From: Acidobacteriota bacterium
GTDB lineage: Bacteria > Acidobacteriota > Thermoanaerobaculia > Gp7-AA8
Reading direction: 5' to 3'
NCBI GenBank assembly: GCA_019244185.1
Contig: JAFATB010000006.1
Span: forward strand, 192,001 to 256,000
DNA: 64,000 bases
Shown: piece by piece, positions 5,400 through 18,500 of the stretch
Layout of the letters: each line of letters opens with the position of its first letter
How positions within the stretch are numbered: the stretch's first letter is position 1
Made by a program: the position numbers and the translations under genes
The notes under the pieces: generated by a model
Databases searched by the model: none
What the model was told of the DNA's origin: nothing
What the model saw: the letters and a program-made list of their open reading frames with translations, nothing else

Positions 5400-5435
5400 G
5401 GTGGTGGTTTACTTTGAACCTTTACTTGTAACAGG
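5400..5435 (+). repeat. Left terminal inverted repeat
   Basis: GGTGGTGGTTTACTTTGAACCTTTACTTGTAACAGG; 28/36 identical to the reverse complement of 8568-8603. Confidence 0.9.
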
Positions 5436-5466
5436 CCACGCGCCAGTTACAACCTACATTGAAACG

Positions 5467-5607
5467 TGGGTGGTGCCACCGTGGGAGTAACCCAGACATG
5501 CAGATGGGAACGTGGAGGTTTGGCTTCACCTGCGCTCGGCTCAAGACCGAGCCGCACCAGACCCCACCACACAACCCGTCCGCTCTTGCAATCGGTGGCA
5601 CCGCCCA
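5467..5607 (+). ncRNA. Structured RNA candidate, unit 1 (long hairpin, apical loop CTCAAGA)
   Basis: 15-bp closing stem 5467-5481/5593-5607. Inner stems 5500-5508/5575-5583, 5512-5523/5557-5567 and 5531-5539/5547-5556. G-U pairs indicate the + strand. Homologous to unit 2. Confidence 0.7.
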
Positions 5608-5630
5608 ACCTTGAGACCTACATTGGAGAT

Positions 5631-5760
5631 GGGGAGCGTGCGCATGAGTTAACCAGACTCAGACACTGAGCGGAGCGAGAGGTTGGGCACGCACCGGATT
5701 CCAGACCCGGCAGCACCCAGCGCTCGCATTACCCGTGTTTTGGCAATGCGCACGTTCCCC
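5631..5760 (+). ncRNA. Structured RNA candidate, unit 2 (long hairpin, apical loop TTCCAGA)
   Basis: 15-bp closing stem 5631-5645/5746-5760. Inner stems 5661-5666/5735-5740, 5675-5687/5716-5727 and 5694-5697/5707-5710. Same architecture as unit 1 with different stem sequences. Confidence 0.7.
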
Positions 5761-5773
5761 GACCTCAACCTGT

Positions 5774-5947
5774 TTACTTTCTGGATGGGTCCGGTTTGGT
5801 ACGTCGCTTGCTCTTTGGGAGGGCAGCGCGTTGACGTAGCACATCCCGGTCGGACACCGGTTTCGGACCAGTTTCGGTGTGTTCGATTACTACATCCAGA
5901 ACAGCGCGTGCTGCCTTGATCGGATCACCCCGTGATTTCGACTTCAT
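5774..5947 (-). CDS. Small basic IS passenger protein
   Basis: GAGGA RBS before ATG 5947. 'RGDPIKAARAVLDVVIEHTE' resembles the small basic proteins often seen beside ISMhu11-type transposases (from memory). Confidence 0.55.
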   Translation of the reverse strand: MKSKSRGDPIKAARAVLDVVIEHTETGPKPVSDRDVLRQRAALPKSKRRTKPDPSRK

Positions 5948-6248
5948 TGGTTCCTCGCTCACAGTCTGTAATTCTGTCTTCGAGCACGCTCAACCAGTCT
6001 TCCAAATCGTTCAACCTTGCTCCCAGACTGCTAAGCCGGGCTTCCAAACGGTACTGTTCTTGTTGTTTGTCCGCTGACTGGATCGATGCATGTTCTACCC
6101 ATAACCAAGCAAGCCACAACATCACGCCGGTTGTCAGCATGAACAGCGAGGCCAGCTTGCCTAGATAGATCAACTGCCTGCGACTGGCAGCAAACACCAC
6201 AACCGCCACCACACCGCACAGCACGTACACCCACCAGCGCGCCCTCAT
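5925..6248 (-). CDS. Membrane protein (2 TM helices plus coiled coil)
   Basis: Two hydrophobic segments, then heptad 'LEARLSSLGARLNDLEDWLSVLEDRI'. Start overlaps the upstream stop (ATGA). Confidence 0.65.
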   Translation of the reverse strand: MRARWWVYVLCGVVAVVVFAASRRQLIYLGKLASLFMLTTGVMLWLAWLWVEHASIQSADKQQEQYRLEARLSSLGARLNDLEDWLSVLEDRITDCERGTNEVEITG

Positions 6249-6547
6249 GGCGTCGCCGCCACACACCTGAACTGCACCTCCGCCTTTGGATAGTTGCCGA
6301 ACATGTACGGTGAATGACCGGTGAGAGTGTTCACCACCTGTAACATCTTCCCGTGTTCCGCGCAGAACCGACTCGCTTGCAAGGTGATGTCGGCAGTAAT
6401 CGAGTCTGAACCGATAAACCCTGTGGCTCCACGCTTATAAATCCTGTACATGTCCGTGCCGGGCAGCGCAACCACGCCCGTGGTTGAGCCGCATCCCGCG
6501 AGCATCAGCACGGCCTTTGCCACCATACGACGAAAGTGACGGTTCAT
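6245..6547 (-). CDS. Small lipoprotein
   Basis: Lipobox 'VLMLAGC', mature part with two further Cys ('ASRFCAEHGK..PKAEVQFRC'). Start set at ATG 6547 because the longer ORF overlaps the HTH gene. Confidence 0.7.
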   Translation of the reverse strand: MNRHFRRMVAKAVLMLAGCGSTTGVVALPGTDMYRIYKRGATGFIGSDSITADITLQASRFCAEHGKMLQVVNTLTGHSPYMFGNYPKAEVQFRCVAATP

Positions 6548-6636
6548 GCGGTTTGCCTCCATTCGCTCTGATACCCATAGAATGGATACCGAAAGCATGG
6601 AAAGCAAGCGCTTAACACGAACAACACTTTCGCCGA

Positions 6637-6882
6637 ATGGCGGCGCGGAGCCCAGCGGTACAGTTAGTTGGAGCACGATTGAGGGAGTTGCGGAAGTCTC
6701 GCGGACTCTCACAGGAACAACTCGGCCATCTATGCGGACTCGACCGTAACTACGTCGGTCAAATCGAGCGAGGCAACCGCAACCCTTGTTTGGACAACAT
6801 CGTGAAACTGGCAAAGGCGCTCGGCGTAACACCCGCAGACCTGTTCAGCCGGTTCGACCTCGACACGATGAGGGATGTATAA
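6637..6882 (+). CDS. XRE/Cro-family helix-turn-helix transcriptional regulator
   Basis: 'GARLRELRKSRGLSQEQLGHLCGLDRNYVGQIERGNRNPCLDNIVKLAKALGV' is a canonical HTH_3 pattern. Confidence 0.93.
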   Translation: MAARSPAVQLVGARLRELRKSRGLSQEQLGHLCGLDRNYVGQIERGNRNPCLDNIVKLAKALGVTPADLFSRFDLDTMRDV

Positions 6883-7008
6883 GGGGAATGGGGGTAACTG
6901 GGGCGCGTCCGAACCGCGCTGATGGGAACCGAAGTAGGCGTCAGTTTGTGGAACTGACCAGCCACGCCTCTCAGTACCTGTGACACCAGTTGCCCCCATT
7001 CCCCTTAT
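6879..7008 (+). ncRNA. Long-stem hairpin element 3 (23-bp inverted repeat, 84-nt structured interior)
   Basis: 6879-6901 pairs with 6986-7008 with one G-U on the + strand. Interior hairpins GCGCG-TCCGAAC-CGCGC and GTCAGTT-TGTGG-AACTGAC. Confidence 0.6.
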
Positions 7009-7152
7009 CGTTTGAATCCCACCTCGGCGCGTGTATGCCCACGGCAACAGCGCCATCAACCACTACATTCCTGTGGAATACCACCGATCCGGCCATCCGA
7101 CCGGTGTCAAGTCTGGCGTATCCACGTTACGACTCACATTGTAGGTAAGCAT

Positions 7153-7963
7153 ATGAGGAGACTGCCTAAATCCACCCGCACCAGAATTCTTGCTGCTCTC
7201 GTCGAAGGTAATTCCATTGCATCCACCTGCCGACTGGTGGGTGTGGCCAAGCTCACCGTACTGCGGCTACTGGAGGAAGTCGGTGAAGCGTGTACGGCAT
7301 TCAGCGACCGGTTCATTACCGGCATTGAATCGCCGCACGTACAGGTGGACGAGATGTGGGGGTTCTGTCAGCAGAAACAGAAGAACGTATCCCCGGAGAA
7401 TGCGGGCGTTCTGGGGTATGGCAACGTCTGGACCTACATCGCAATAGACTCACGGTCCAAACTGGTAATCACGTGGCGTGTGCGGGCATCGTAACGAGCA
7501 GACCACACGTGACTTCCTGCATGACTTGGCGTCCCGGCTGACTGGACCCGTTACGCTCTCTACTGACGGGTTCATGGGATACGTCAATGCGATACCGGAA
7601 GCGTTTGACGGAACGCTGAACTACGGGGCTGTGGAGAAACTGTACGAGCGTAACCGGTACGTCGGTGCGAACTACACGAACCGAGTGGGAAACCCGTCGA
7701 AGATATCCACGTCCCTCATCGAGCGCCAGAACCTCACGGTGAGAATGTCAAACCGGCGCATGACGCGCAAGACGAACGGTTTCTCGAAGAAACTGTCCAA
7801 CCACATCTACCAGCTGGCAATCAACTTCGTCTACTACAACTTCGTCCGCACTCACGCCACCATCAAGACGACACCAGCGCTTGCAGCCGGGATCATCGAC
7901 TACCAGTTGTCGCTTGCCGATATGACCGAGTTGGCAATCTGGAGCGATGTGCAGGCGGCGTAA
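7153..7963 (+). pseudogene. IS1-family DDE transposase with a 1-nt frameshift near 7483
   Basis: N-terminal HTH 'LVEGNSIASTCRLVGVAKLTVLRLL'. Catalytic motifs 'VQVDEMWGF', 'LSTDG' and 'STSLIERQNLTVRM..R..RKTNGFSKK'. Split between ORFs 7012..7494 and 7478..7963. Confidence 0.9.
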
Positions 7964-7977
7964 ACAGGCACAATTAC

Positions 7978-8076
7978 GCAGGCTGTCCCAATGGTCGGTA
8001 CCGTTGCGGGATTTACACTCCCGGTAGGCTCGCTGCCGTTGCCAGCGATGGGGTTCAACTCCCACAGCCTCCGCAA
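7978..8076 (+). tRNA. Irregular tRNA-like gene (8-bp acceptor, 4-bp T-stem, tRNA-Sec-like D-arm, long variable arm; anticodon TAC)
   Basis: Acceptor GCAGGCTG/CAGCCTCC (7/8 paired), discriminator G8073. D-stem CAATGGT-CGGT-ACCGTTG. Anticodon arm CGGGA-TTTACAC-TCCCG. 25-nt variable region. T-arm TGGG(G)-TTCAACT-CCCA. Ends CAA rather than CCA. Confidence 0.7.
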
Positions 8077-8084
8077 ACCCAGTC

Positions 8085-8231
8085 TAACAGGTGGGGTGAG
8101 TGGAACCATCCAAACTCGCGGTGACGACTACTGCTTGCGGGACGACTTTCCGAACGTCGGCGGCAGTTGTACGTCTGTGACACTTTGGCGAACGGATTTG
8201 GTTTGGATGGTTCCACTCACCCCACCTGTTA
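8085..8231 (+). ncRNA. Long-stem hairpin element 4 (perfect 31-bp inverted repeat, 85-nt structured interior)
   Basis: 8085-8115 TAACAGGTGGGGTGAGTGGAACCATCCAAAC is the exact reverse complement of 8201-8231. Interior 8116-8180 folds as an extended hairpin with loop ACTTTCCGAA. Confidence 0.65.
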
Positions 8232-8249
8232 TGTGCAGACTGCGTTATT

Positions 8250-8258
8250 TGCTATACT
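8250..8258 (+). promoter_or_regulatory. Putative extended -10 promoter (TGcTATACT) for the 8268 gene
   Basis: TGnTATACT lies 9 nt before the ATG and there is no SD, so the mRNA may be near-leaderless. Confidence 0.4.
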
Positions 8259-8267
8259 CTCAACCCC

Positions 8268-8594
8268 ATGACGGTCGAAGAGATACGCGTACAGAAAGCA
8301 CTGGCGATGTTGGAAGTGGAAGAGGCCGAGACCGCCCACGCTGCTGCCAGTGAGCACGCCCACGAGTTGCAAGTGGCAACTAGTGAGGCGATCAGTACTG
8401 CCCTCGATATTGCCCGTCGTTTGCCTGTGCAGGTGGATCGACTGCGCGAGACGTTGGCAGGGATTGATCTGGACGGGCTGTCAGAGGCACAGACGCAGGC
8501 CGAACGGTTTCTTGGTGCCGCTGCGGCCGCCCGAGTGAAACTGCGCGAGTTTCAACTACCCGGACGACCTGTTACAAGTGGATGGGGAAAGTAA
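8268..8594 (+). CDS. Alpha-helical/coiled-coil IS passenger protein
   Basis: 108-aa Ala/Glu-rich ORF whose stop codon lies within the right TIR. Confidence 0.6.
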   Translation: MTVEEIRVQKALAMLEVEEAETAHAAASEHAHELQVATSEAISTALDIARRLPVQVDRLRETLAGIDLDGLSEAQTQAERFLGAAAAARVKLREFQLPGRPVTSGWGK

Positions 8595-8603
8595 ACCAGT
8601 ACC
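8568..8603 (-). repeat. Right terminal inverted repeat
   Basis: Reverse complement is GGTACTGGTTTACTTTCCCCATCCACTTGTAACAGG. Confidence 0.9.
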
Positions 8604-8965
8604 CGATAACCTGCACCGGTGTGAGTTGGCCGCGTTCGGCCGCAACGTGCATTGTAGCGACGGCAATCTCTCGCGTTTTCAGATACCAAACCCAGGTCTA
8701 TCGGTGAAGATCATCAAGGATGATGACCGTCGAACGCCCACCGGTATTCATGAAACTGCCAAACTTCTTTTTCGCCCACCCCAGCGCCGATCCCGCAAAC
8801 GCTTTGAAATACCGAGCGTCGTGTTCTGGCACTGCTCGCCGACCGGATCGCGGCCATTAACCGGGTCGCCGCCCGCAAATGTGTAAGGCGTTGAAGAGTC
8901 TTGATAATTCGGATCCGGCGGCACGAATGTGCCGGTCAAGGAATCCAGCCACCGCTCCCTTGCAG
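8604..8965 (-). pseudogene. Orphan RHS core end plus pre-toxin linker, truncated by the IS
   Basis: 'ARERWLDSLTGTFVPPDP..YTFAGGDPVNGRDPVG.QCQNTTL', then after a frameshift 'GWAKKKFGSFMNTGG..AERGQLTPVQVIG'. This matches the main toxin 'ARERWFD..YTFAGGDPVNDRDPSG..CKNTTL..QWAKGAFVGFMNFGG..VERGEGTPVYVIG'. Confidence 0.8.
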
Positions 8966-9003
8966 ACACGCTAGCCACTTGACTGCATACAATCGCGGCT
9001 CCG

Positions 9004-9555
9004 CTAAAATCGACTACTTCGGCGGTTGCGTTGCATTATTTTGCGGTTCCGCGCTGCGGTGTAGTCTTTACCGTGGTCAACAGAAGGCGAATCTGAAATA
9101 TCCGAATATGGGCCGTCGGCAGCCATCTCAGGGAAGGCACGCACCGGCACTTCTACGCCTCGGACCTGTGTTACGGGCTCATATTCCACAGGTGCAAACA
9201 TCATCGGTATAAAGTCCGTGGCGAAGAATGTTCCCACTGCTATGGCGCGACTGCGATCCGCAGCCGTGATGGTCGTGAAGCCCTGGCCAGGAACGTACAG
9301 GATCTCGCCGTCTGCATCAGCGCGTGCAACCGCCGCTTCGAACGTCGCGATGTCGTTGACCATCGTCCGCTTCGCGAGTTCGTAATATTCTGTCGTGACG
9401 GTCAAATCGGCCATCTGCGTTTCGTAATCGCCGCCAATCGCGCCGCTCGTGTCGTACCACTTCCGCGCTACTGGCACACGAAGCGGCTGCCTGAACGACC
9501 TACGTTCGGTTCTCGTGAAATCGTCATAGACCTTCTTACCGCGCCCTTTCAGCAT
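9004..9555 (-). pseudogene. Orphan toxin C-terminal fragment (lead-in of an HNH-type toxin, catalytic part missing)
   Basis: 'GPYSDISDSPSVDHGKDYTAARNRKIMQRNRR' resembles the segment preceding HNH toxin domains in RHS tips (from memory). Lower GC, located in the orphan array. Confidence 0.55.
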
Positions 9556-9564
9556 CGCGAACCG

Positions 9565-10735
9565 CTCGCGTTTGCGTGGCGTCGACTTTCGTCTGCGCCG
9601 CGTCATGCGGCCGTTCGCCGTGTAGCTCGCCTGCGCGACTCGCCGATGAGCGTGCCGACCGCGCGTAGGTCTTGACGCTCTTCGGGTTGCCCCAGTCGTC
9701 GAAGTCGGTGACGGTCTTCACGCCGTTCGGAGCGAGCGACGACGTCGCGCGGCCGTGGACGTCGTACGCGACGGCGCTCGCGCTGTGGTTGTCGGCCGAG
9801 TAGACGAGGTTGCCCGCGAGGTCGTACGCGTACTGTTCGACGATCGGCGTGCCGCCGGTGGTCGTGGTGCGCTTCGCGATTCGTCCGAGCCCATCCAGTT
9901 CTTCCGTGACCACCGCGCCGCCGGGCAGCATGCGCACGATCTTGCGATTGGTGAGGTCGTAGTCGGTGGTCGTGGTGACGGAGGTGAGGCCCTCGCCCAC
10001 CGCGACGTTGTTCGTCGTCGACTGCTTCACGCGACCGAGCGGGTCGTACGCGAGCGACGTGGTCACGCTGTGGCCGTCCTGCTTGTGCGTGGTCTCGGTG
10101 AGGCGTCCGTTGAGGTCGTACTTGGACGACTCCTCGAGCGAGAGCGACGGGCCGGTGGTGACGCTCGACACCGGACGGCGCCAGCCGTCGAGGTTCGTGA
10201 GCGTCGAGACGCCGCGCTCCTCGTCGACCTTGATCTGATCGGGCCCCGGATACGCGAACTTCGTCTGCAGGCCGGAGGCATCGACGAGCTCCGGCATCGC
10301 GCGCGCGTACTCCGGCGCGGTGGCGTCGCGGAACTTGTAGCTGACTGACGCGTTGCCGCCGGCGTCGGTGCCGCCCGTGCTCGTGACGGTTTTCGGCTGG
10401 CCGTACGCGTCGACTTCGACCGTCGTCGTGATGGCGTCGTTCGTGGCCGCGACGCTCTTCTTCATCGCGCTCGGCTCGGAGGTATGGATCGTGTCGCTGC
10501 CGATGCTGACGCTCTCGAGATACGCGGGACGCGGATTCGACGATGCGTCGTCGTAGCCGAAGGTCCGCTTGATCGGCGTCGCGCCGCTGCCGCTCGTTTC
10601 GCTGGTGAAGAGCACGAAGCCGGGCGCGCCGGGCTCGATCGATTTGTAGGTGTTCGTCGTCGTGCGGATCGTGCTCGTGGCGCCGATGCCGAGAGCTCGC
10701 TTCGTCGTTTGTCGTCCTTTGAGCATGCGCCGCGG
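9565..10735 (-). repeat. Near-identical duplicate (about 1.15 kb) of an internal YD-repeat segment of the giant RHS gene (about 16188-17375)
   Basis: ORF 9536..10726 repeats 'GIGATS..TIRTTTNTYKSIEPGAPGFVLFT..DDWGNPKS' almost verbatim. The DNA aligns with scattered substitutions and indels at the ends. Confidence 0.93.
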
Positions 10736-10740
10736 CCTTC

Positions 10741-11271
10741 CTAATTCAAGTCGTACTCTGCGCCCGAACGAACGCTCGCTGTAAATCGGACGCCGCTTTC
10801 CATTAACTCTTTGCTGATGGTCCGACGTAATAGGATTTCACCTTTGAAAAGCGGCGTTTGATTTCTCGCTCGAACGATTTTGAAGGGCGCCAAAGCGTTC
10901 GCGTCGTCAGTTGCGGTACCGACTTGACCCTGATGACGGCAACGTCGCCGAACCGACCGCCTGACTGATGACCACCGTTGCCGGATTCTGCATTTGATCG
11001 ATTGCACACTTCACTCCGCCACGCCGCTGCGGCACTTCACGGATATTGATCCGCTGGGTCGCAGCCGCGACGAGGTAACTCCGCTCCTGTGCTTGATCAC
11101 CTTTCTGCGCGACTCCGAATGACTCGATAGTTCGACGGAGTTCGCGGTAAACAGTTCCGGCTTATCGAACAACCCGGTAAGAACATACTGCAGTCGTTGC
11201 TCGGCTTCGATCGCAGCCGCTGCCGTTTTCAAGTCTTCATTCACCGCGAAGAACACGATCGATTTGCTCAT
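10741..11271 (-). pseudogene. Orphan immunity protein, frameshifted
   Basis: Pieces 'MSKSIVFFAVNEDL..LQYVLTGLFDKPE', 'AIDQMQNP', 'QGQVGTATDD', 'FEREIKRRFSKVKSYYVGPSAK' and 'ELMESGVRFTASVRSGAEYDLN' join into one ~175-aa protein. GAGG RBS. Directly follows the orphan toxin. Confidence 0.7.
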
Positions 11272-11280
11272 CTCACCTCA

Positions 11281-11595
11281 CTACTGTTTCGGCTTCGGAA
11301 TCAACACCAGGTGATCACCCGGCTTTGCTGGCGAATGCGCGTCGCGCTTGGTGGCTTCGCGTGTTGTTGGCGTGATCCCATCCGCACGCGTATCCACGGT
11401 GTTGATCCGGAGCGTCCGACCGTTCTTCGTGGCCGTGATGTCACGCCATGACGAACCGCGTCGCGCTCCTCCGGGTCCAGGCAAATACTCCTCTGGCGCA
11501 CGTCCGCCACCGTACGTTACCGTCCACCCTCTTGCTTACAGCTCGTTAGTAATCTGCGCGATCTGCTCGCGCGTCTCAGGGCTGCCAAGACCGCA
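11281..11595 (-). pseudogene. Orphan RHS toxin tip (putative nuclease, REase-like fold), disrupted
   Basis: 'LGSPETREQIAQITNEL*ARGWTVTYGGGRAPEEYLPGPGGARRGSSWRDITATKNGRTLRINTVDTRADGITPTTREA..PGDHLVLIPKPK' with an in-frame TAA and small indels. Confidence 0.7.
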
Positions 11596-12050
11596 AGTCG
11601 AGCAAAGATCCCCGCTAAGAACGCTTGCGCTGTAAATTCTCCAGCCTCGCGCTCTTGCTGTTCGGGGCTGATATTGCCGGCGATAGCATGCACGCAAAAA
11701 CTTGTTGTACCCCGATGCAGTCGTTGAGCGCGATGAGAGAGACCATCGCGGTACTGCGATCCTGGCCGAGCAATTCGCTTTGCGCCGTCCGAGTCAGTCT
11801 CGTCGATAGTTCGCGGAGTCAGGTCGATGCCGCGCTCTGCTTTTACTTACCCAGCAAAATCCCTTCGGGCAGCTCGCGGCGGCTGATGGCACGGCTTAAG
11901 TGGTCGTAAGAGGCCATCTAGGGCCTTATGTTGTCACAATGTACGGCACTTCGATCCAATCATACTTTGGCGACGTCGCGCTATACCGACCCGGGGCAGG
12001 CAGATACGCATATGCCGTGGTTGGCCCAACGTAGTGGGTGCCGAGGAGCT

Positions 12051-12521
12051 TTACTTAACGGTATTTTCGTCCCAGGCCGCGTTGAAAGCGCGATGCAGCA
12101 AAGGATCATCCGGCCCAGTAGGCAACCATCCGTCCCTGACGTCCGATGAATTGAACCACTGCCATACACGATGGCATTGCTCCTCATAATACTCGCCGAC
12201 AAGGGTCATCCAATCTGAAAATGCTTGGACTCGGGCGTACTCGGCGCTTGAGTCACCGCGCCAACCATCGGGCAGGTACTCGCGCAGAAACCTAGACAAG
12301 GTATCGACTGCGAATGCCCGCATGTCGTCTGACATTTCCGCTTCCTCTTTCAAGAGGAGCTTCAACTGAATCGGCGCCACGGAACTTGAGAGAACCTCAA
12401 TCATCTGATCGAAGGTTTCAGTTCGATGCGACCGAGCAAATTCTGTCGCGCTGCGGTATCCAAGTGCACGCACCCTCGACCGCAATCGTTCGTGCCAGTC
12501 GCCATCCCAAACGTTTGTCAT
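12051..12521 (-). CDS. Cognate immunity protein of the giant RHS toxin
   Basis: ATGA overlap with the toxin stop. 'WDGDWHERLRSRVRALGYRSATEFA..GWLPTGPDDPLL' resembles proteins that follow DUF2380-type toxins (from memory). Confidence 0.85.
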   Translation of the reverse strand: MTNVWDGDWHERLRSRVRALGYRSATEFARSHRTETFDQMIEVLSSSVAPIQLKLLLKEEAEMSDDMRAFAVDTLSRFLREYLPDGWRGDSSAEYARVQAFSDWMTLVGEYYEEQCHRVWQWFNSSDVRDGWLPTGPDDPLLHRAFNAAWDENTVK

Positions 12522-15500
12522 TGTCGAAATGGGACAAACGAGCCTGAAAGGCCATAGTCCCTCATCATTTGCTTGCCAACATCGAAAACTTCAGCAAACG
12601 TCAATGCCCGCCCAAGAAGCTTTTCGCGCTGCGAGATGCGGGACATGATCTGTCGATTCCATTCGCCTTCCCATTTGCGACCAAGGCGATAGTTCCCGCC
12701 TCCGTGAATGGCTTGATGAATCGCTTCGTCCAACTCCAGAGTAAACTGATCAATATCGCGACCCCCTGTGAAACCACGGACCTCAAAGAACGCTCGAAAT
12801 TCTTGAGGAAAAACATGGTGACGAGGATTGCGGACCACGCCGGCACCGCGCGCGCCAGTCTCAGTCACCGCATCCGATTCTGGGCCCTCCCCCAAGGAAT
12901 CGTGCACTGAACTCGCGAGCACAATCGTCGAGACCATCGGGCCACTTCGTGCGCTACGCGCGATCACTCCCGCCGTGGGCAATACTACTCCCGAGCTTGT
13001 CGCAAGTGCCGGTGCAGGAGTTGTCGGCGTGTTCATCGCGGACACTGTCCCGCGCACAGCTGTATAGCCATCAAGCAACGCTGGTGCAGCCGCGCGTGCT
13101 ATGTCTTCTTTGCATCCACTGCTCGAAGCGGCGTCGATTGCCTTTACTCGCTTGTCAACCGCGCCTCCAATAACATATACTGGCGTACCTTCGCCACGTT
13201 CGACAGCCGCGATGGCAAGTGACAGGCTGCGTCGTTCCTGACGACGAGCGTCTGCGGCATTCTCATGCACCCATCCCCCATACCCGAATGTTAGGGTATC
13301 GATGAGTTTCACAGTTTGATCCCCACCAAAGTTCATGAATCCGACGAATGCACCCTTAGCCCATTGCCAAGCGCCCTCCCCTGCCGCTTGTAATGATGCA
13401 AGCGTTGTGTTCTTGCATGGCTTCTGCAGCCCTGAAGGGTCTCGATCATTTACGGGGTCGCCCCCAGCGAAGGTATAAAGGTTTGAAGCGTCGACGTACC
13501 CCAGCGGATCCGGCGACAGGAACGCCCCCCGCCCCGCATCAAACCAGCGCTCCCTCGCGAACACGAGTCCCGTCCCTACCTCCTCGAACGGCAAGGCCTG
13601 GAACGACGACATGAGGATGCTGCGACCCACTGCCGGCTCCGCTGGTGAGCCCAAGGCGGCGAGGGAGGGGGCGGCGTAGGGGGTGGTGGTGGGGTCGGGG
13701 GCGGCGAGGAAGGACGTGAGCGTCGCGAGGGACGCGCGGTATTCGACGGGGAGGGTGGGGGAGGTGTGGATGGGGTGGGCGGTGGTGGCCCAGGTCGGGG
13801 GCGGGAGGATGGGGGTGGCGGTGGACCACGCTTTGGCGCGGAGGGTGTTGGTGACGGCAATCGAGAGCGATTGGACGTCGCCGGTGGGGGACGTGAGCGC
13901 GGTCCACTGGGTGGGGGTGAGGGTCCAGTGGATGGTGTTGGGGTCGGAGAGCGTGGAGGTGACCGTCGCGGTGCGGACGACGTTGCCGCTCGCGGTCACG
14001 GCGGCGAGGCGGGTGCCGGTGGCGAGGGTGGCCTCGTCGAGGGCTTCGGTCGAGCGGATCGAGACCTCCACGGCCGTGAGGTTACCACTCGCGTCTTTGG
14101 TCTTGCTCAGCGTGATGCGATCGATGGCGGCGCCGGCGAGGCTGCTTTCTTCTTCGCCGTAGGCGCCGTCGACGACGGTGCGGGAGATGACTTTGCCGTC
14201 GTCGCCGAGGATGAGCTGGAGGTTGCCGTTGCCGGCTTCGTCGAAGACGGGGTAGAAGTGATGCACGTCGGGCGTCACGCCGTCGGTCACGGTCACCTCG
14301 AGCGGATCGTCGTAGGCGGCGTCGCCGTGGATGAGTTGGCGGAGAAGACCTCCGTTGGCGTCGACGGACGGGTTCGCGCTCGCGCCGGCTTTGTAGACGG
14401 AGACGAGACGGTCGGAGATCGGGTCCCACACGAACGTCGTCTCGGCGGGCAGGCCGTCGGCGAAGAGGACGGCGTCGCGGTTCTCGAGCTTCCAGTCGCT
14501 GTCGAGCGGCGGCATGGAGATGGAGCTCAGCTGCGCATACTCGACGCGGCGGCCGACGATGCGGTTGCTCGCGGCGTAGTCGTAGCGGAAGCGGCGGATG
14601 GTGAGTGACGGCGTCGGGATTTCGGTCGCGGTGATGATGCGGCCGCGGTCGTCGAACTCGTACTGATAGCGGCCATCACCCGTGCGCTCGGCGCCGATGT
14701 AGGTGAACGTGTGCGACTCGCCGTTCGCGGCCACGGTGCCGATGCGGTGTCCGGACAGCTCGTCGAAGTTGAGCGTCGGCGGCGCGGCCGGTTCGACGGA
14801 CGGCGACGGACGCTCGAGCTGCGTGCGGAAGCCGGCGTCGGTGACGTGCTCGATCGACGGATTGCTGCTGTCGTCGTGCGCGGTGACGGTCGTGAGCAGA
14901 CGGCTGCGCGCGTCGTAGGAGTACTCGTTGAAGCGTGTATCGGCGGAGATGCCGAGGAGCTGCTCGCGTTTGATCTGCACGCCGTCGTACGTGATGGCGG
15001 AGCCGCCGACGACGTTGCCGCCGGCGACGATGCGCAGCTCGGAGAGCTGTCCCGCGTTCGCGGTGTCGTAGGTGTACTGACGCTCGATGACGGCCGACGC
15101 GCTCGTCGTCAGCGTACGCACGTTGGGGCGGCCGGCATTGCGGTAGTCGGCGGTGAGCAGCGGCATCGGCGACGGCGCACCGATGAGCGTGCGCGTCATC
15201 GCGCTCACGTTGCCGGCGGCGTCGTGGCTCTCCCCTACCTTCTGCGTCCATTGCGTCGCGCTGGTGGGAAAGCCGCTGTAGGACGGCATCGTCCACGACT
15301 CGCGTTCGCCGTGCACGTTCCAGGTGTGATCCTGCTCATAGGAATCGAGCACGGTCGCCGAGCCGAAGCCGGAGTGATCCTTGAAGCGCGTCTGCTTCGT
15401 GCGGCGCGGGCGATCCTCGAAGTCGTAGTCCTCGAAGACGAGCGCGGCGTCGCGCGTGCGCCATGTGGTGATGCGGCCGGCGGCGTCGTAGTCGAGCTTC

Positions 15501-18500
15501 TCGATGAGCTCTCCGCCGTTGCGGCGGATCTCGGTGAGCTGGTTCTTGTCGTCGTAGGTGTAGTTGAAGAGGCGGCCTTGGCGGTCCTTCATCGACGCGA
15601 GGCGCGAGCCGTCGTAGGTCCAGGTCTCCTGCGTGCCGTCGGGATAACGGCGGACGCTCGGACGGCCGAGGAGATCGGACTCGGTCGTTTCGGTGAGGCC
15701 GGTGCCGGTGCCGCCGTCGGACTCGTCGCGATACGACGTGTCGGTGCCGGCGGCGTGATAGCCGTACTTCACTTCGGGGGCGCCCGGCTCGCGTTTCGAG
15801 AGCAGGTTGCCGCGCGCGTCGAAGTGCTGCCTCGTCGACTCGCGCGCGGGCGGCGCGTCGGCGGTGACGTTGCCGTCCTCGTCGTAGCTACGCTTCCACT
15901 CGAGCGCGCCGGCCTGGTTCCGCGTCGGATTGCCGAGCGTGTCGTAGTCGTACTGCATGTCGATCGGCGAGGTCGCGCCGCGCTCGGTGAGCGTGCCGTT
16001 CTTGACCATGCCGCCGGTGTAGTCGGAGGCGAGGTACTTCGAGAACTCGGTCGTGATGGTCGACGTCGTGCCGGCGCCGGCGATCGAGGACTTGAGGCGT
16101 CCCGCGTCGTCGAAGGCCTGCTTCGCGGCGCGTCCGCTGACGGCGGTCGACGTGATGCGGCCGGCGCCGTCCCACTTCATCTCGCTCTCGCGCGTTTGCG
16201 TCGCGTCGACTCTCGTCTGCGCCGACGTCATGCGGCCGTTCGGCGTGTAGCTCGCCTGCGACTCGCCGATGAGCGTGCCGACCGCGTCGTAGGTCTTGAT
16301 GCTCTTCGGGTTGCCCCAGTCGTCGTAGTCGGTGACGGTCTTCACGCCGTTCGGCGCGAGCGACGCGGTGGCGCGGCCGTGGACGTCGTAGGCGACGGCA
16401 CTCGCGCTGTGGTTGTCGGCCGAGTAGACGAGGTTGCCCGCGAGGTCGTACGCGTACTGTTCGACGATCGGCGTGCCGCCGGTGGTCGTGGTGCGCTTCG
16501 CGACGCGTCCGAGTCCGTCGAGTTCTTCGGTGACGACGGCGCCGCCGGGCAGCATGCGCACGATCTTGCGATTGGTGAGGTCGTAGTCGGTCGTGGTGGT
16601 GACGGAGGTGAGGCTCTCGCCCACCGCGACGTTGTTCGTCGTCGACTGCTTCACGCGACCGAGCGGGTCGTACGCGAGCGACGTGGTCACGGTGTGGGCG
16701 TCCTGCTTGTGCGTGGTCTCGGTGAGGCGTCCGTTGAGGTCGTACTTGGACGACTCTTCGAGCGAGAGCGACGGGCCGGTCGTCACGCTCGACACCGGAC
16801 GGCGCCAGCCGTCGAGGTTCGTGAGCGTCGAGACGCCGCGCTCCTCGTCGACCTTGATCTGATCCGGCCCCGGATACGCGAACTTCGTCTGCAGGCCGGA
16901 GGCATCGACGAGCTCCGGCATCGCGCGCGCGTACTCCGGCGCGGTGGCGTCGCGGAACTTGTAGCTGACCGATGCGTTGCCGCCGGCGTCGGTGCCGCCC
17001 GTGCTCGTGACGGTTTTCGGCTGGCCGTACGCGTCGACTTCGACCGTCGTCGTGATGGCGTCGTTCGTGGCCGCGACGCTCTTCTTCATCGCACTCGGCT
17101 CGGAGGTATGGATCGTGTCGCTGCCGATGCTGACGCTCTCGAGATACGCGGGACGCGGATTCGACGACGCGTCGTCGTAGCCGAAGGTCCGCTTGATCGG
17201 CGTCGCGCCGCTGCCGCTCGTTTCGCTGGTGAAGAGCACGAAGCCGGGCGCGCCAGGCTCAATCGATTTGTAGGTGTTCGTGGTCGTGCGGATCGTCGCG
17301 CTCGTGGCGCCAATGCCGGAAAGCGTCGCCGTCTCCAGCATGCCGTCGGGCACATACGTGAAGAGCATGCGCCGCGTCAGCGACTCGGTCGGCGCGCCGG
17401 ACGGCGTGACCGCGGCCGGCAACGTGCCGAACGGCGTCGTCACCGCGGCGACGTTCGTCTCATCGAGCTGCCTCACGTGCGCGCGGTCGGTGGTGTAGTT
17501 GCCCGGCTGCGGCGTGAGCTCGTAGACGCGCTCCTGGCCGAGAACGTCTTTGGTCGTGGTGTGCGTCGCGTCCGTGTAGGTGAACGTGGCCGACTCGCCG
17601 GTCTTCCACGTCTGCGTCTTCACCTTGTCGCGATCGCTGGTGCTGTACGCGAACGCGACGCGCGGACCCTCGCCCATCGGATCGGTGATGGACGTGAGGT
17701 TCGGCGCGAGCTCGAGCTTGTCGTTGTACGTCGATGCGGGCGTGCCGTAGCCGTATTGCGTAGTCGGACGTCCGGTGCCGGTCTCCGGCAGCGTCGCGGT
17801 GATGAGGCGGCCCGCGTCGTCGTAGTCGTAGTCGACGCGCCCGAGCCAGCTTTCGATCGACTGCAGGCGTCCCGCTTTCAGTCCCGTGCCATCGGGGAAG
17901 TACATGAGGCGCGACACGCGGCCGACCGGATCGATGACCTGCGCGAGGCGGCCGCTGAGATCGTAGAGATAGCGGACGACGTTGCCGGCGTCGAGCGCGT
18001 ACGCGTTCGGCGCGAACTCGTCGGTCTCGTGCACGAGGCGTCCCATCGAATCGAACGCGCTGATGCGCGCCTTCTGATCGACGAGCACCCAACCACGATC
18101 GGTGCGCGAGAGCTTGAGGAAGAGTCCCTTCGGACGCTGGTAGAAGCCGGTGGCGTTGTCGAGCGTGAAGCGCCAGATCTCGCCGGCGCCGTCGCGATAT
18201 TCGACGTCGCCGTTCGGCAGCGCGCGCAGGCGGCGGAAGATCGACGACTCCCACCCCATACCGACCGTGCCGCCGATCGTGCGCGAGCGATACGTGCGAT
18301 CGAACAGGGCGTTCCAGCCGTTGCGGCCGCCCGCATCCATGTCGAGCGCGGAGGTCTCGACTTCGCCCGAATGGAGATACGTCGTCTCCTGCAATGCGCC
18401 GCCGGCTACGGGAGGCGCCTGCGCGGCGACGAGCACGCTCGGCGGACGCACGGTGTCGGCCATGATGGTGGCAAAGCGCGCGGTGAAACGGTTCTCGCGT

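Follow-up and report, generated by a model that had tools for sequence, protein, structure and literature searches.

A tRNA-like gene lies at positions 7978–8076 of the stretch of DNA analysed here (the window: 64 000 nucleotides, positions 192,001–256,000 of contig JAFATB010000006.1, assembly GCA_019244185.1, from an Acidobacteriota bacterium). We think it probable that the gene belongs to a conserved family of transposon-borne 9/3 allo-tRNA-like RNAs, which would act on the mRNA of their own transposase, and that the copy in the window is an impaired relic. The parts of this reading differ in strength. Membership of the family and the status of the gene as cargo are, in our judgement, very likely; that the window copy is non-functional is a view towards which we lean slightly, and the gating of transposase synthesis proposed for the family is tentative.

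The minimum-free-energy fold of the gene is a cloverleaf, and the Rfam model of tRNA-Sec (RF01852) aligns to it full-length (7977–8073). A preliminary description of this DNA, made from the letters and their open reading frames (ORFs), had placed an allo-tRNA-like 8/4 cloverleaf here, starting 14 nt past the transposase stop codon (TAA 7961–7963); position and cloverleaf are borne out, and so are the parts that it listed. The acceptor stem has a C–C mismatch at its second pair (C7979–C8071), its other eight pairs being Watson–Crick. The D arm, with a 7 bp stem and a CGGU loop, is tRNA-Sec-like, and the anticodon arm has a perfect 5 bp stem (CGGGA/UCCCG) and a UUUACAC loop in which the anticodon UAC stands with U33 and A37. 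There is a long variable region (27 nt, with a 6 bp stem), a TTCAACT T loop, and a G discriminator (G8073) followed by a tail that reads CAA in place of CCA. The geometry is a different matter: the 12 bp acceptor branch is divided 9/3 and not 8/4, with U7986–A8064 as the ninth acceptor pair and a GGG/CCC T stem that closes a loop of 7 nt (UUCAACU), so that the extra G which the preliminary description had to discount in the T stem fits without adjustment. The 8/4 reading would require a G–A pair or a 6 nt T loop, and was rejected; the homologues described below covary for the ninth acceptor pair and support the 3 bp T stem.

The expectation that standard scanners may miss such a gene proved correct, as ARAGORN calls no tRNA in the 64 kb window. 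The RF01852 match reaches 27.2 bits where the gathering score is 47; its E values are 0.011 in the 2 kb searched and 0.007 genome-wide. In the genome-wide list most matches of at least 20 bits are ARAGORN tRNA calls; the four weakest (15–17 bits) are not, and three of these are unusually long (99–112 nt). Because the lowest matches lie there, 27.2 bits stands above the non-tRNA noise of this genome (∼15–17 bits). The fold energy is unexceptional (z −1.09; 27 of 200 shuffled sequences were equally stable), and the gene is single-copy in its genome. It departs from a canonical tRNA-Val, a 7/5 class-I cloverleaf recognized by scanners, in its 9/3 fold, its long variable arm and the missing ARAGORN call; the host has its own tRNA-Val(UAC) at C10:120785–120859. 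We rejected tRNA-Sec as its identity, given the sub-cut-off score, the UAC loop and the true tRNA-Sec found elsewhere in the genome (C26:37415–37508, 71.1 bits). Three of the 47 credible host tRNAs, tRNA-Sec included, have no encoded CCA, and in the family described below CCA is encoded in one member, L115; its absence from the window copy is therefore no defect in itself. No sigma-70-like site was found around the gene, and by eye we saw no complement of the anticodon arm within 8077–8300. Contigs from three DNA read sets, possibly those from which the assembly was made, are identical to 6800–8114 at a depth of 32–89. This stretch covers the mismatch, the G run and the CAA tail, at which the preliminary description had advised that reads be inspected, and also the transposase frameshift.

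Homologues were sought with covariance models built from the window sequence alone (R1) or from four sequences (R2). R1 detected L106 (59.7 bits), L107 (58.0 bits) and L108 (49.4 bits) in a sample of the phylum (151 genomes), and R2 detected L115 (60.7 bits) in a sample of the class (151 genomes). When R2 was applied to the order of genome G188 (151 genomes), six genomes gave matches, G188 itself and five new ones with six further copies, L127–L132 (47.8–75.1 bits); it found nothing beyond L106 and L107 in the order of G193 (26 genomes) and nothing beyond L115 in the order of G319 (119 genomes). Ten homologues were thus obtained, spread over nine genomes in other parts of the phylum; with models from the sequence they score 47.8–98.4 bits. 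About 700 genomes in all were scanned with the models. Nearer home, searching 124 genomes of the same taxonomic family at the DNA level returned chance matches of 20–30 nt only, and R1 gave nothing credible on 34 other genomes of the genus and 126 other genomes of the order, the top matches proving on inspection to be due to chance. The distribution of the RNA family is therefore sporadic, with no relatives near home and ten scattered further out. The idea that the RNA is conserved within the lineage of the window transposase was discarded: R1 reached at best 14.3 bits on 51 loci with relatives of the transposase and 10.4 bits on three distant transposase relatives from metagenomes. Transposase relatives were found in 39 of the 124 genomes, a tally that includes the unpublished genome G036, on which no other result depends. 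At 20 of the 51 loci Rfam models identified just ordinary tRNAs.

Covariation among the homologues shows a real RNA family with a 9/3 tRNA-like body competent to form an L shape. When the 11 sequences are aligned by covariance-model fitting (A4), 93.0% of cells are paired, compared with 72.9% in shuffles and 43–49% with slid partners; 23 of 30 pairs have changed on both sides, and none of 500 shuffles reaches any of five measures. A structure-blind alignment (A5; MAFFT with RNAalifold), run to counter the bias of a model-fitted alignment towards its own modelled structure, recovers the 9 bp acceptor and the 3 bp T stem, and 17 of its 23 pairs are compensatory. The acceptor helix is 99% paired, the C–C of the window copy being the sole unpaired cell among 99, and its ninth pair is UA in eight sequences, AU in two and GC in one. 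The 3 bp T stem is 100% paired and the variable-arm helix 96.6% paired, while the anticodon helix is the weakest (82.7%), with loops of 7–9 nt; acceptor and T arm, the upper half of the RNA, are the best-conserved part. The preliminary description would have been refuted by homologues that do not conserve the cloverleaf; those found here keep it, with covariation.

The D arm of the family has a stem of 5–6 bp and a loop of 4–6 nt with an invariant GG, the GUUCRA of the T loop is invariant, and the discriminator is G73, the Ser-type base, in 11 of 11. G73, a long variable arm and the pairs G1–C72, G2–C71 and A3–U70 look Ser-like by established identity rules. Nine of the 11 members have G2–C71, and the 2:71 pair is lost in the window copy alone. 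The motif UUUAC is present in ten of the 11 anticodon loops, the exception being L128, whose CUUAUCA reads as UAU. In the structure-blind consensus the register is N-UUUACA, and UUA with C37 would then be presented.

The preliminary description had the gene directly after a transposase. It is indeed on the same strand, 14 nt off, but it is not merely adjacent: it is cargo inside an IS1-type element, a decayed cargo transposon with a GC content of 56.7%, against 67.1% for the genome (Table 1). The right end of the element is the best local alignment to the left end within 7001–16000, and no target duplication is visible. IS1 ends together with a short target duplication are found in a sister element of the same genome, L019, whose XRE gene is 71% identical in DNA to that of the window element and whose cargo further comprises a 190-aa ORF, a 74 nt tRNA-like gene and a short-arm tRNA(GCU). 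The 74 nt gene resembles the tRNA-like domain of tmRNA. The sister's transposase is frameshifted at a different place from that of the window, and the fold of the sequence that follows it is not significant (z −0.85).

Intact relatives of the window transposase (266–279 aa) align to both of its pieces, in different frames. It scores 21.6 bits against Pfam PF03400, for which the cut-off of 24.1 is passed by the intact transposases of L018, L106 and L108, and its best match, to NCBIfam NF033558, is also below the cut-off. It thus appears to be a distant member of the IS1 family, and a broken one. Between the XRE gene and the transposase, the hairpin element abuts the remnant of a class-I tRNA and replaces the 5′ part of that tRNA. 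Thirteen nucleotides of the remnant recur exactly in the T arm of the tRNA at L034; this 13-mer occurs once in the genome and sits 141 nt before the start of the ORF, and the T loops of the relatives' tRNAs lie at −78 to −143. No model matches it. A class-I tRNA is found 41–179 nt before the transposase ORF, on the same strand, in 17 of the 51 loci with transposase relatives, the anticodons being ACU in 12, GCU in three, and UGC and GUC in one each. Since the transposase is frameshifted, the upstream tRNA truncated, one end diverged and no promoter motif seen, we regard the window element as dead.

Table 1. Features of the window element, of the tRNA-like gene that it carries, and of its sister element.
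Feature	Position	Strand	Remarks
tRNA-like gene, 9/3 allo-tRNA type	7978..8076	+	fold, Rfam match, homologues, covariation
tRNA-like gene, acceptor	7978–7986 paired with 8064–8072	+	
tRNA-like gene, D arm	7989–8006	+	
tRNA-like gene, anticodon arm	8007–8023	+	UAC = 8014–8016
tRNA-like gene, variable arm	8024–8050	+	
tRNA-like gene, T arm	8051–8063	+	
tRNA-like gene, 3′ end		+	discriminator G8073, then tail CAA
IS1-type cargo transposon, window element	5400–8603		contains the RNA gene
Left terminal inverted repeat	5400..5434	+	matches L019 element ends; full-length pattern matched once, 0 expected
XRE-type helix-turn-helix gene, cargo	6637..6882	+	NCBIfam helix-turn-helix and antitoxin-type families, best E 9.5e-13
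Hairpin element	6879..7008	.	130 nt; 23 nt arms 96% complementary, 84 nt between; single-copy in genome
Class-I tRNA remnant (T loop, 3′ T stem, 3′ acceptor strand)	7010..7030	+	reading by eye
IS1-like transposase gene, +1 frameshift near 7478–7484	7153..7963	+	two ORF pieces; start ATG 7153 by homology
Inverted repeat	8085..8231	.	perfect 31 bp arms, 85 nt between, 8 nt past the RNA gene
108-aa ORF in transposon	8268..8594	+	no Pfam or NCBIfam match
Right terminal inverted repeat, diverged	8568..8603	+	28/36 bases match reverse complement of left end
Sister element, same genome	L019:1981–5684 (C6:476480–480183)		35 nt inverted ends 89% complementary, 8 bp target duplication

The inverted repeat downstream of the RNA gene is a separate unitig in the read sets, and a search of 123 other genomes of the family brought up no relative. 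Its 31 nt arms were considered as IS1 ends and dismissed, the resemblance being confined to the first 5–7 bases. It and the hairpin element at 6879–7008 flank the pair of transposase and RNA gene, and similar long hairpins lie near L019, L025, L043 and L044.

The loci of the homologues point to the same kind of carrier. An IS1-like transposase lies within 1.5 kb of the RNA gene at nine of the 11 loci; of the exceptions, L128 is at a contig end and L132 has no transposase in reach. At five loci the RNA gene points towards the transposase and a 116-aa cargo gene; at three it is oriented away from the transposase, as the first gene of a cargo operon; the same-strand position downstream of the transposase is seen at the window locus only. 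DNA homology of the window to L106 and L107 (73%) is limited to 7976–8074, and the window transposase is 35–42% identical to those of L106 and L107 and to all seven linked ones. As homology is confined to the RNA gene and the transposases are so far apart, the RNA gene accompanies distant IS1 lineages, and by the evidence of these loci the family travels as IS1-family transposon cargo in several families of the phylum.

A cargo protein of ∼100–116 aa, without a Pfam or NCBIfam match, is conserved with several IS1-like transposases (L108:968–1318; L106:421–720, minus strand; downstream in L071, L075 and L085). A downstream motif in L071, L075 and L085 proved to be this protein-coding cargo.

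A codon link between the RNA and its carrier emerges from the seven intact linked transposases (51–95% identical, 49–65% GC), all of which contain GTAAA exactly once. The site, made up of the Val codon of a QIVK motif and the first two bases of the Lys codon, is complementary to UUUAC, and its GTA is the sole GTA in these genes, bar one in a doubtful N-terminal extension of L127. There are eight invariant Val columns, and the other seven vary among GTC, GTG and GTT, never GTA; three of the 46 invariant columns with fourfold or sixfold degenerate residues keep one codon in all seven sequences. Among 42 transposases without the RNA, 18 have Val at this column, and GTA is used in none of them (GTC in ten, GTG in eight). 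The pattern shows that this synonymous site has stayed the same through deep divergence. For this anticodon such a codon link is new; in a full-text search of the literature we came across no IS1-borne tRNA whose match to transposase codons had been described.

Two further codon patterns were seen among the transposase relatives. At the column of the QIVK Val, all ten transposases of a tRNA-less clade (L022–L025, L027–L031 and L073) use ACA, a Thr codon that is expected to be rare where GC content is high; their loci yielded no tRNA-like gene. Separately, class-I tRNAs form fixed units with IS1-like transposases, with anticodon ACU at L034 (792–1851), L036, L037, L039, L041, L046, L069, L070, L076, L082, L086 and L088, and with GCU at L019, L021 and L042; homology between copies of these units spans the first tRNA base to the stop codon. 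AGT makes up 27% of the Ser codons in the tRNA-linked transposases, at fixed columns, compared with 5% in tRNA-less relatives. L033 and L038 are AGT-rich with no tRNA seen, L033 being at a contig end. We rejected the idea that AGU is recoded in the ACU-linked clade, as the aligned residues are mixed (G, R/K, D/N, T/V) and offer no single alternative.

We propose that the RNA acts on the mRNA of its own transposase at the single conserved GUA-AA site complementary to UUUAC. It could serve as a private decoder of an otherwise avoided Val codon, possibly inserting Ser, or its loop could pair with the mRNA at that site; either way it would gate transposase synthesis. For the family as a whole we treat such gating as a serious possibility and not as an expectation. 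Still more tentative is a generalization, that IS1 transposons of the phylum carry private odd tRNAs (the 9/3 UUUAC RNA, and the class-I ACU or GCU tRNAs) that match fixed codons of their transposases (one GUA-AA site, or several AGU) and gate the transposase or recode Val to Ser, the window copy being a relic of this arrangement.

Several observations weigh against the reading that we favour. The seven linked transposases are kin, and seven out of seven does not amount to seven independent events; the pairing statistics come in part from the model-fitted alignment, with the bias described above. The anticodon UAC holds for the window copy, but in the homologues the loop is best read as ambiguous between UAC and UUA. 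The window transposase itself has Glu at the fixed column, and GTA accounts for four of its 20 Val codons against 73 of 864 in relatives, a weak excess. A search of public runs for the locus listed four DNA runs, which confirm the sequence, and no RNA run. Finally, the window copy retains 29 of its 30 pairs and has the most regular anticodon arm of the 11 family members, and may still work.

These points have to be set beside four other explanations, one of which, that the gene looks like a tRNA by chance or is a host tRNA fragment in decay, is hardly credible. The unexceptional fold energy and the Rfam score below the gathering score would suit it, but ten homologues with covariation in other families of the phylum refute it, and we rejected both a fragment and a recent copy of a host tRNA because the gene has no close similarity to any ARAGORN-called tRNA of the genome. 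An active missense tRNA, cotranscribed with the transposase, processed, given its CCA, charged by seryl-tRNA synthetase and inserting Ser at GUA/GUN Val codons throughout the proteome, would account for the perfect anticodon arm with U33, UAC and A37, for the conserved elbow elements and for G73 in every member; among the host's tRNAs there are already some that mature without an encoded CCA, and both 8/4 and 9/3 allo-tRNAs are described as inserting Ser in E. coli (PMC5389517). The same paper describes transposon-linked UAU-type allo-tRNAs as inactive in E. coli, and at this locus the C2–C71 mismatch is unique where nine of the 11 family members keep G–C, no promoter motif was found, the carrier is dead and the host has its own tRNA-Val(UAC). 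We therefore consider the missense tRNA unlikely.

Hardly better placed is a non-decoding mimic, a processing or stability signal that RNase P and the enzymes of tRNA 3′ processing would cleave, so defining the ends of transposon transcripts; its anticodon loop would be incidental. The position of the gene 14 nt past the stop, on the same strand and without a promoter of its own, fits this well, as do the irregular loops and weakly paired anticodon helix of the relatives and the strong conservation of acceptor and T arm. However, RNA gene and transposase lie on opposite strands in eight of the ten homologues, two homologues have promoter-like motifs of their own (by eye), and an incidental loop would not remain UUUAC in ten of 11 sequences or match a fixed GTAAA in seven of seven. 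More improbable still is an ochre-suppressor allo-tRNA that reads UAA stops with the anticodon UUA. This register is the one given by the structure-blind consensus, and 9/3 allo-tRNAs for UAA have been published (PMC5389517); the window transposase ends in G-TAA-A, and its frame is then open to 8353. Yet the best arm of the window copy presents UAC and not UUA, the UUA register puts C at position 37, the linked genes showed no in-frame TAA, and GTAAA at the window stop is no more than chance would give (four matches against 3.7 expected), that stop (G + TAA + A) being the only plus-strand GTAAA in the window transposase. A TAA stop is used by none of the seven linked transposases, which was counted in favour of suppression. 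The open frame after the stop (7960–8353) runs through the RNA gene, and the G-TAA-A at that stop could pair with the UUUAC loop, to which it is complementary.

We thus return to a conserved family that acts on its own transposase mRNA. Within it, to judge from its sequence and setting, the window copy is most likely an impaired relic, with a unique C2–C71 mismatch at a Ser-identity pair, in a dead element; it is probably decaying and of little consequence for its host. To our knowledge no natural role has been established for allo-tRNAs. The locus ties one 9/3 subgroup of them to a defined carrier, the IS1-family cargo transposon, and the intact relatives tie that subgroup to one fixed synonymous codon in the transposase of the carrier. 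If this is right, the tRNA-like RNA of a mobile element may serve to control or recode the element's transposase, an idea that lends itself to testing at the bench, and genes of this kind escape standard tRNA scanners.

Elsewhere in the window, a 7309-aa ORF with many repeats lies at 12518–34447 on the minus strand, and a 396-aa ORF (9536–10726, minus strand), just downstream of its 3′ end, is a near word-for-word repeat of a long stretch of it, like a displaced cassette (both by eye). In other genomes, L117:1501–1593 (G354) contains a tRNA-like gene of the 8/4 type whose loop is Ser-type (CGA) and whose CCA is encoded, with a second, weaker match 400 nt downstream of it (L117:1899–1994); both resemble other allo-tRNA genes. 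A viral contig carries an 88 nt 8/4 tRNA-like look-alike near a tRNA-Ala (L092:842–929, minus strand; 30.4 bits with R1), which has the top of the D arm and the T loop in common with the window copy and an irregular anticodon arm. Apart from it, a pattern scan of viral contigs found unrelated tRNAs only.

Among known systems, the carrier resembles the IS1 family in its transposase, apparently of the DDE type and with best matches to IS1, its inverted ends starting GGTGGTGG and the 8 bp target duplication of L019. It differs in that its cargo includes odd tRNA or tRNA-like genes, and the window element is decayed and without target duplication. A passenger-carrying subgroup of IS1-family insertion sequences exists. 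With bacterial tRNA-Sec (RF01852) the RNA shares the long acceptor, the D stem of 6–7 bp with a tetraloop and the long variable arm; it differs in scoring 27.2 bits, under the 47 required, in an anticodon other than UCA, and in a branch of 12 bp (9/3) where that of bacterial tRNA-Sec has 13 bp (8/5).

Closer parallels are offered by the allo-tRNAs, and here likeness was judged by the features that the papers describe. The allo-tRNA(UAU) group, which includes a pseudogene in Edaphobacter strain C40 that overlaps a transposon-related ORF (PMC5389517; PMC7609411), shares with our family an association with transposable elements, irregular or destabilized stems, doubtful standing as translating tRNAs and, in L128, the UAU loop. 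Unlike that group, the family has a UUUAC loop, its carrier is an IS1-family transposon with defined ends, and the linked transposases have a fixed matching codon, for which full-text searches found no counterpart in the UAU papers. The 9/3 allo-tRNAs published by Mukai et al. (Nucleic Acids Res 2017; PMC5389517) are given there Arg, Leu or ochre anticodons, a Val anticodon appearing once, in an 8/4 species. The window copy departs from them, on those descriptions, in its broken 2:71 pair and in its anticodon stem, which at 5 bp is no longer than canonical (and is the weakest helix in the relatives). It agrees with them in a 12 bp branch split 9/3, a long tRNA-Sec-like D stem with a 4 nt loop, a long variable arm and G73 (G73 or U73 in the published kind); its anticodon, like theirs, is not one for Ser, and like them it comes up as a tRNA-Sec match below threshold. 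The assignment of the preliminary description to the allo-tRNAs thus stands on the branch, the D arm, the variable arm and G73, and fails on the 8/4 geometry; the family is very likely of the published allo-tRNA kind, and the window copy a new, probably impaired member of it.

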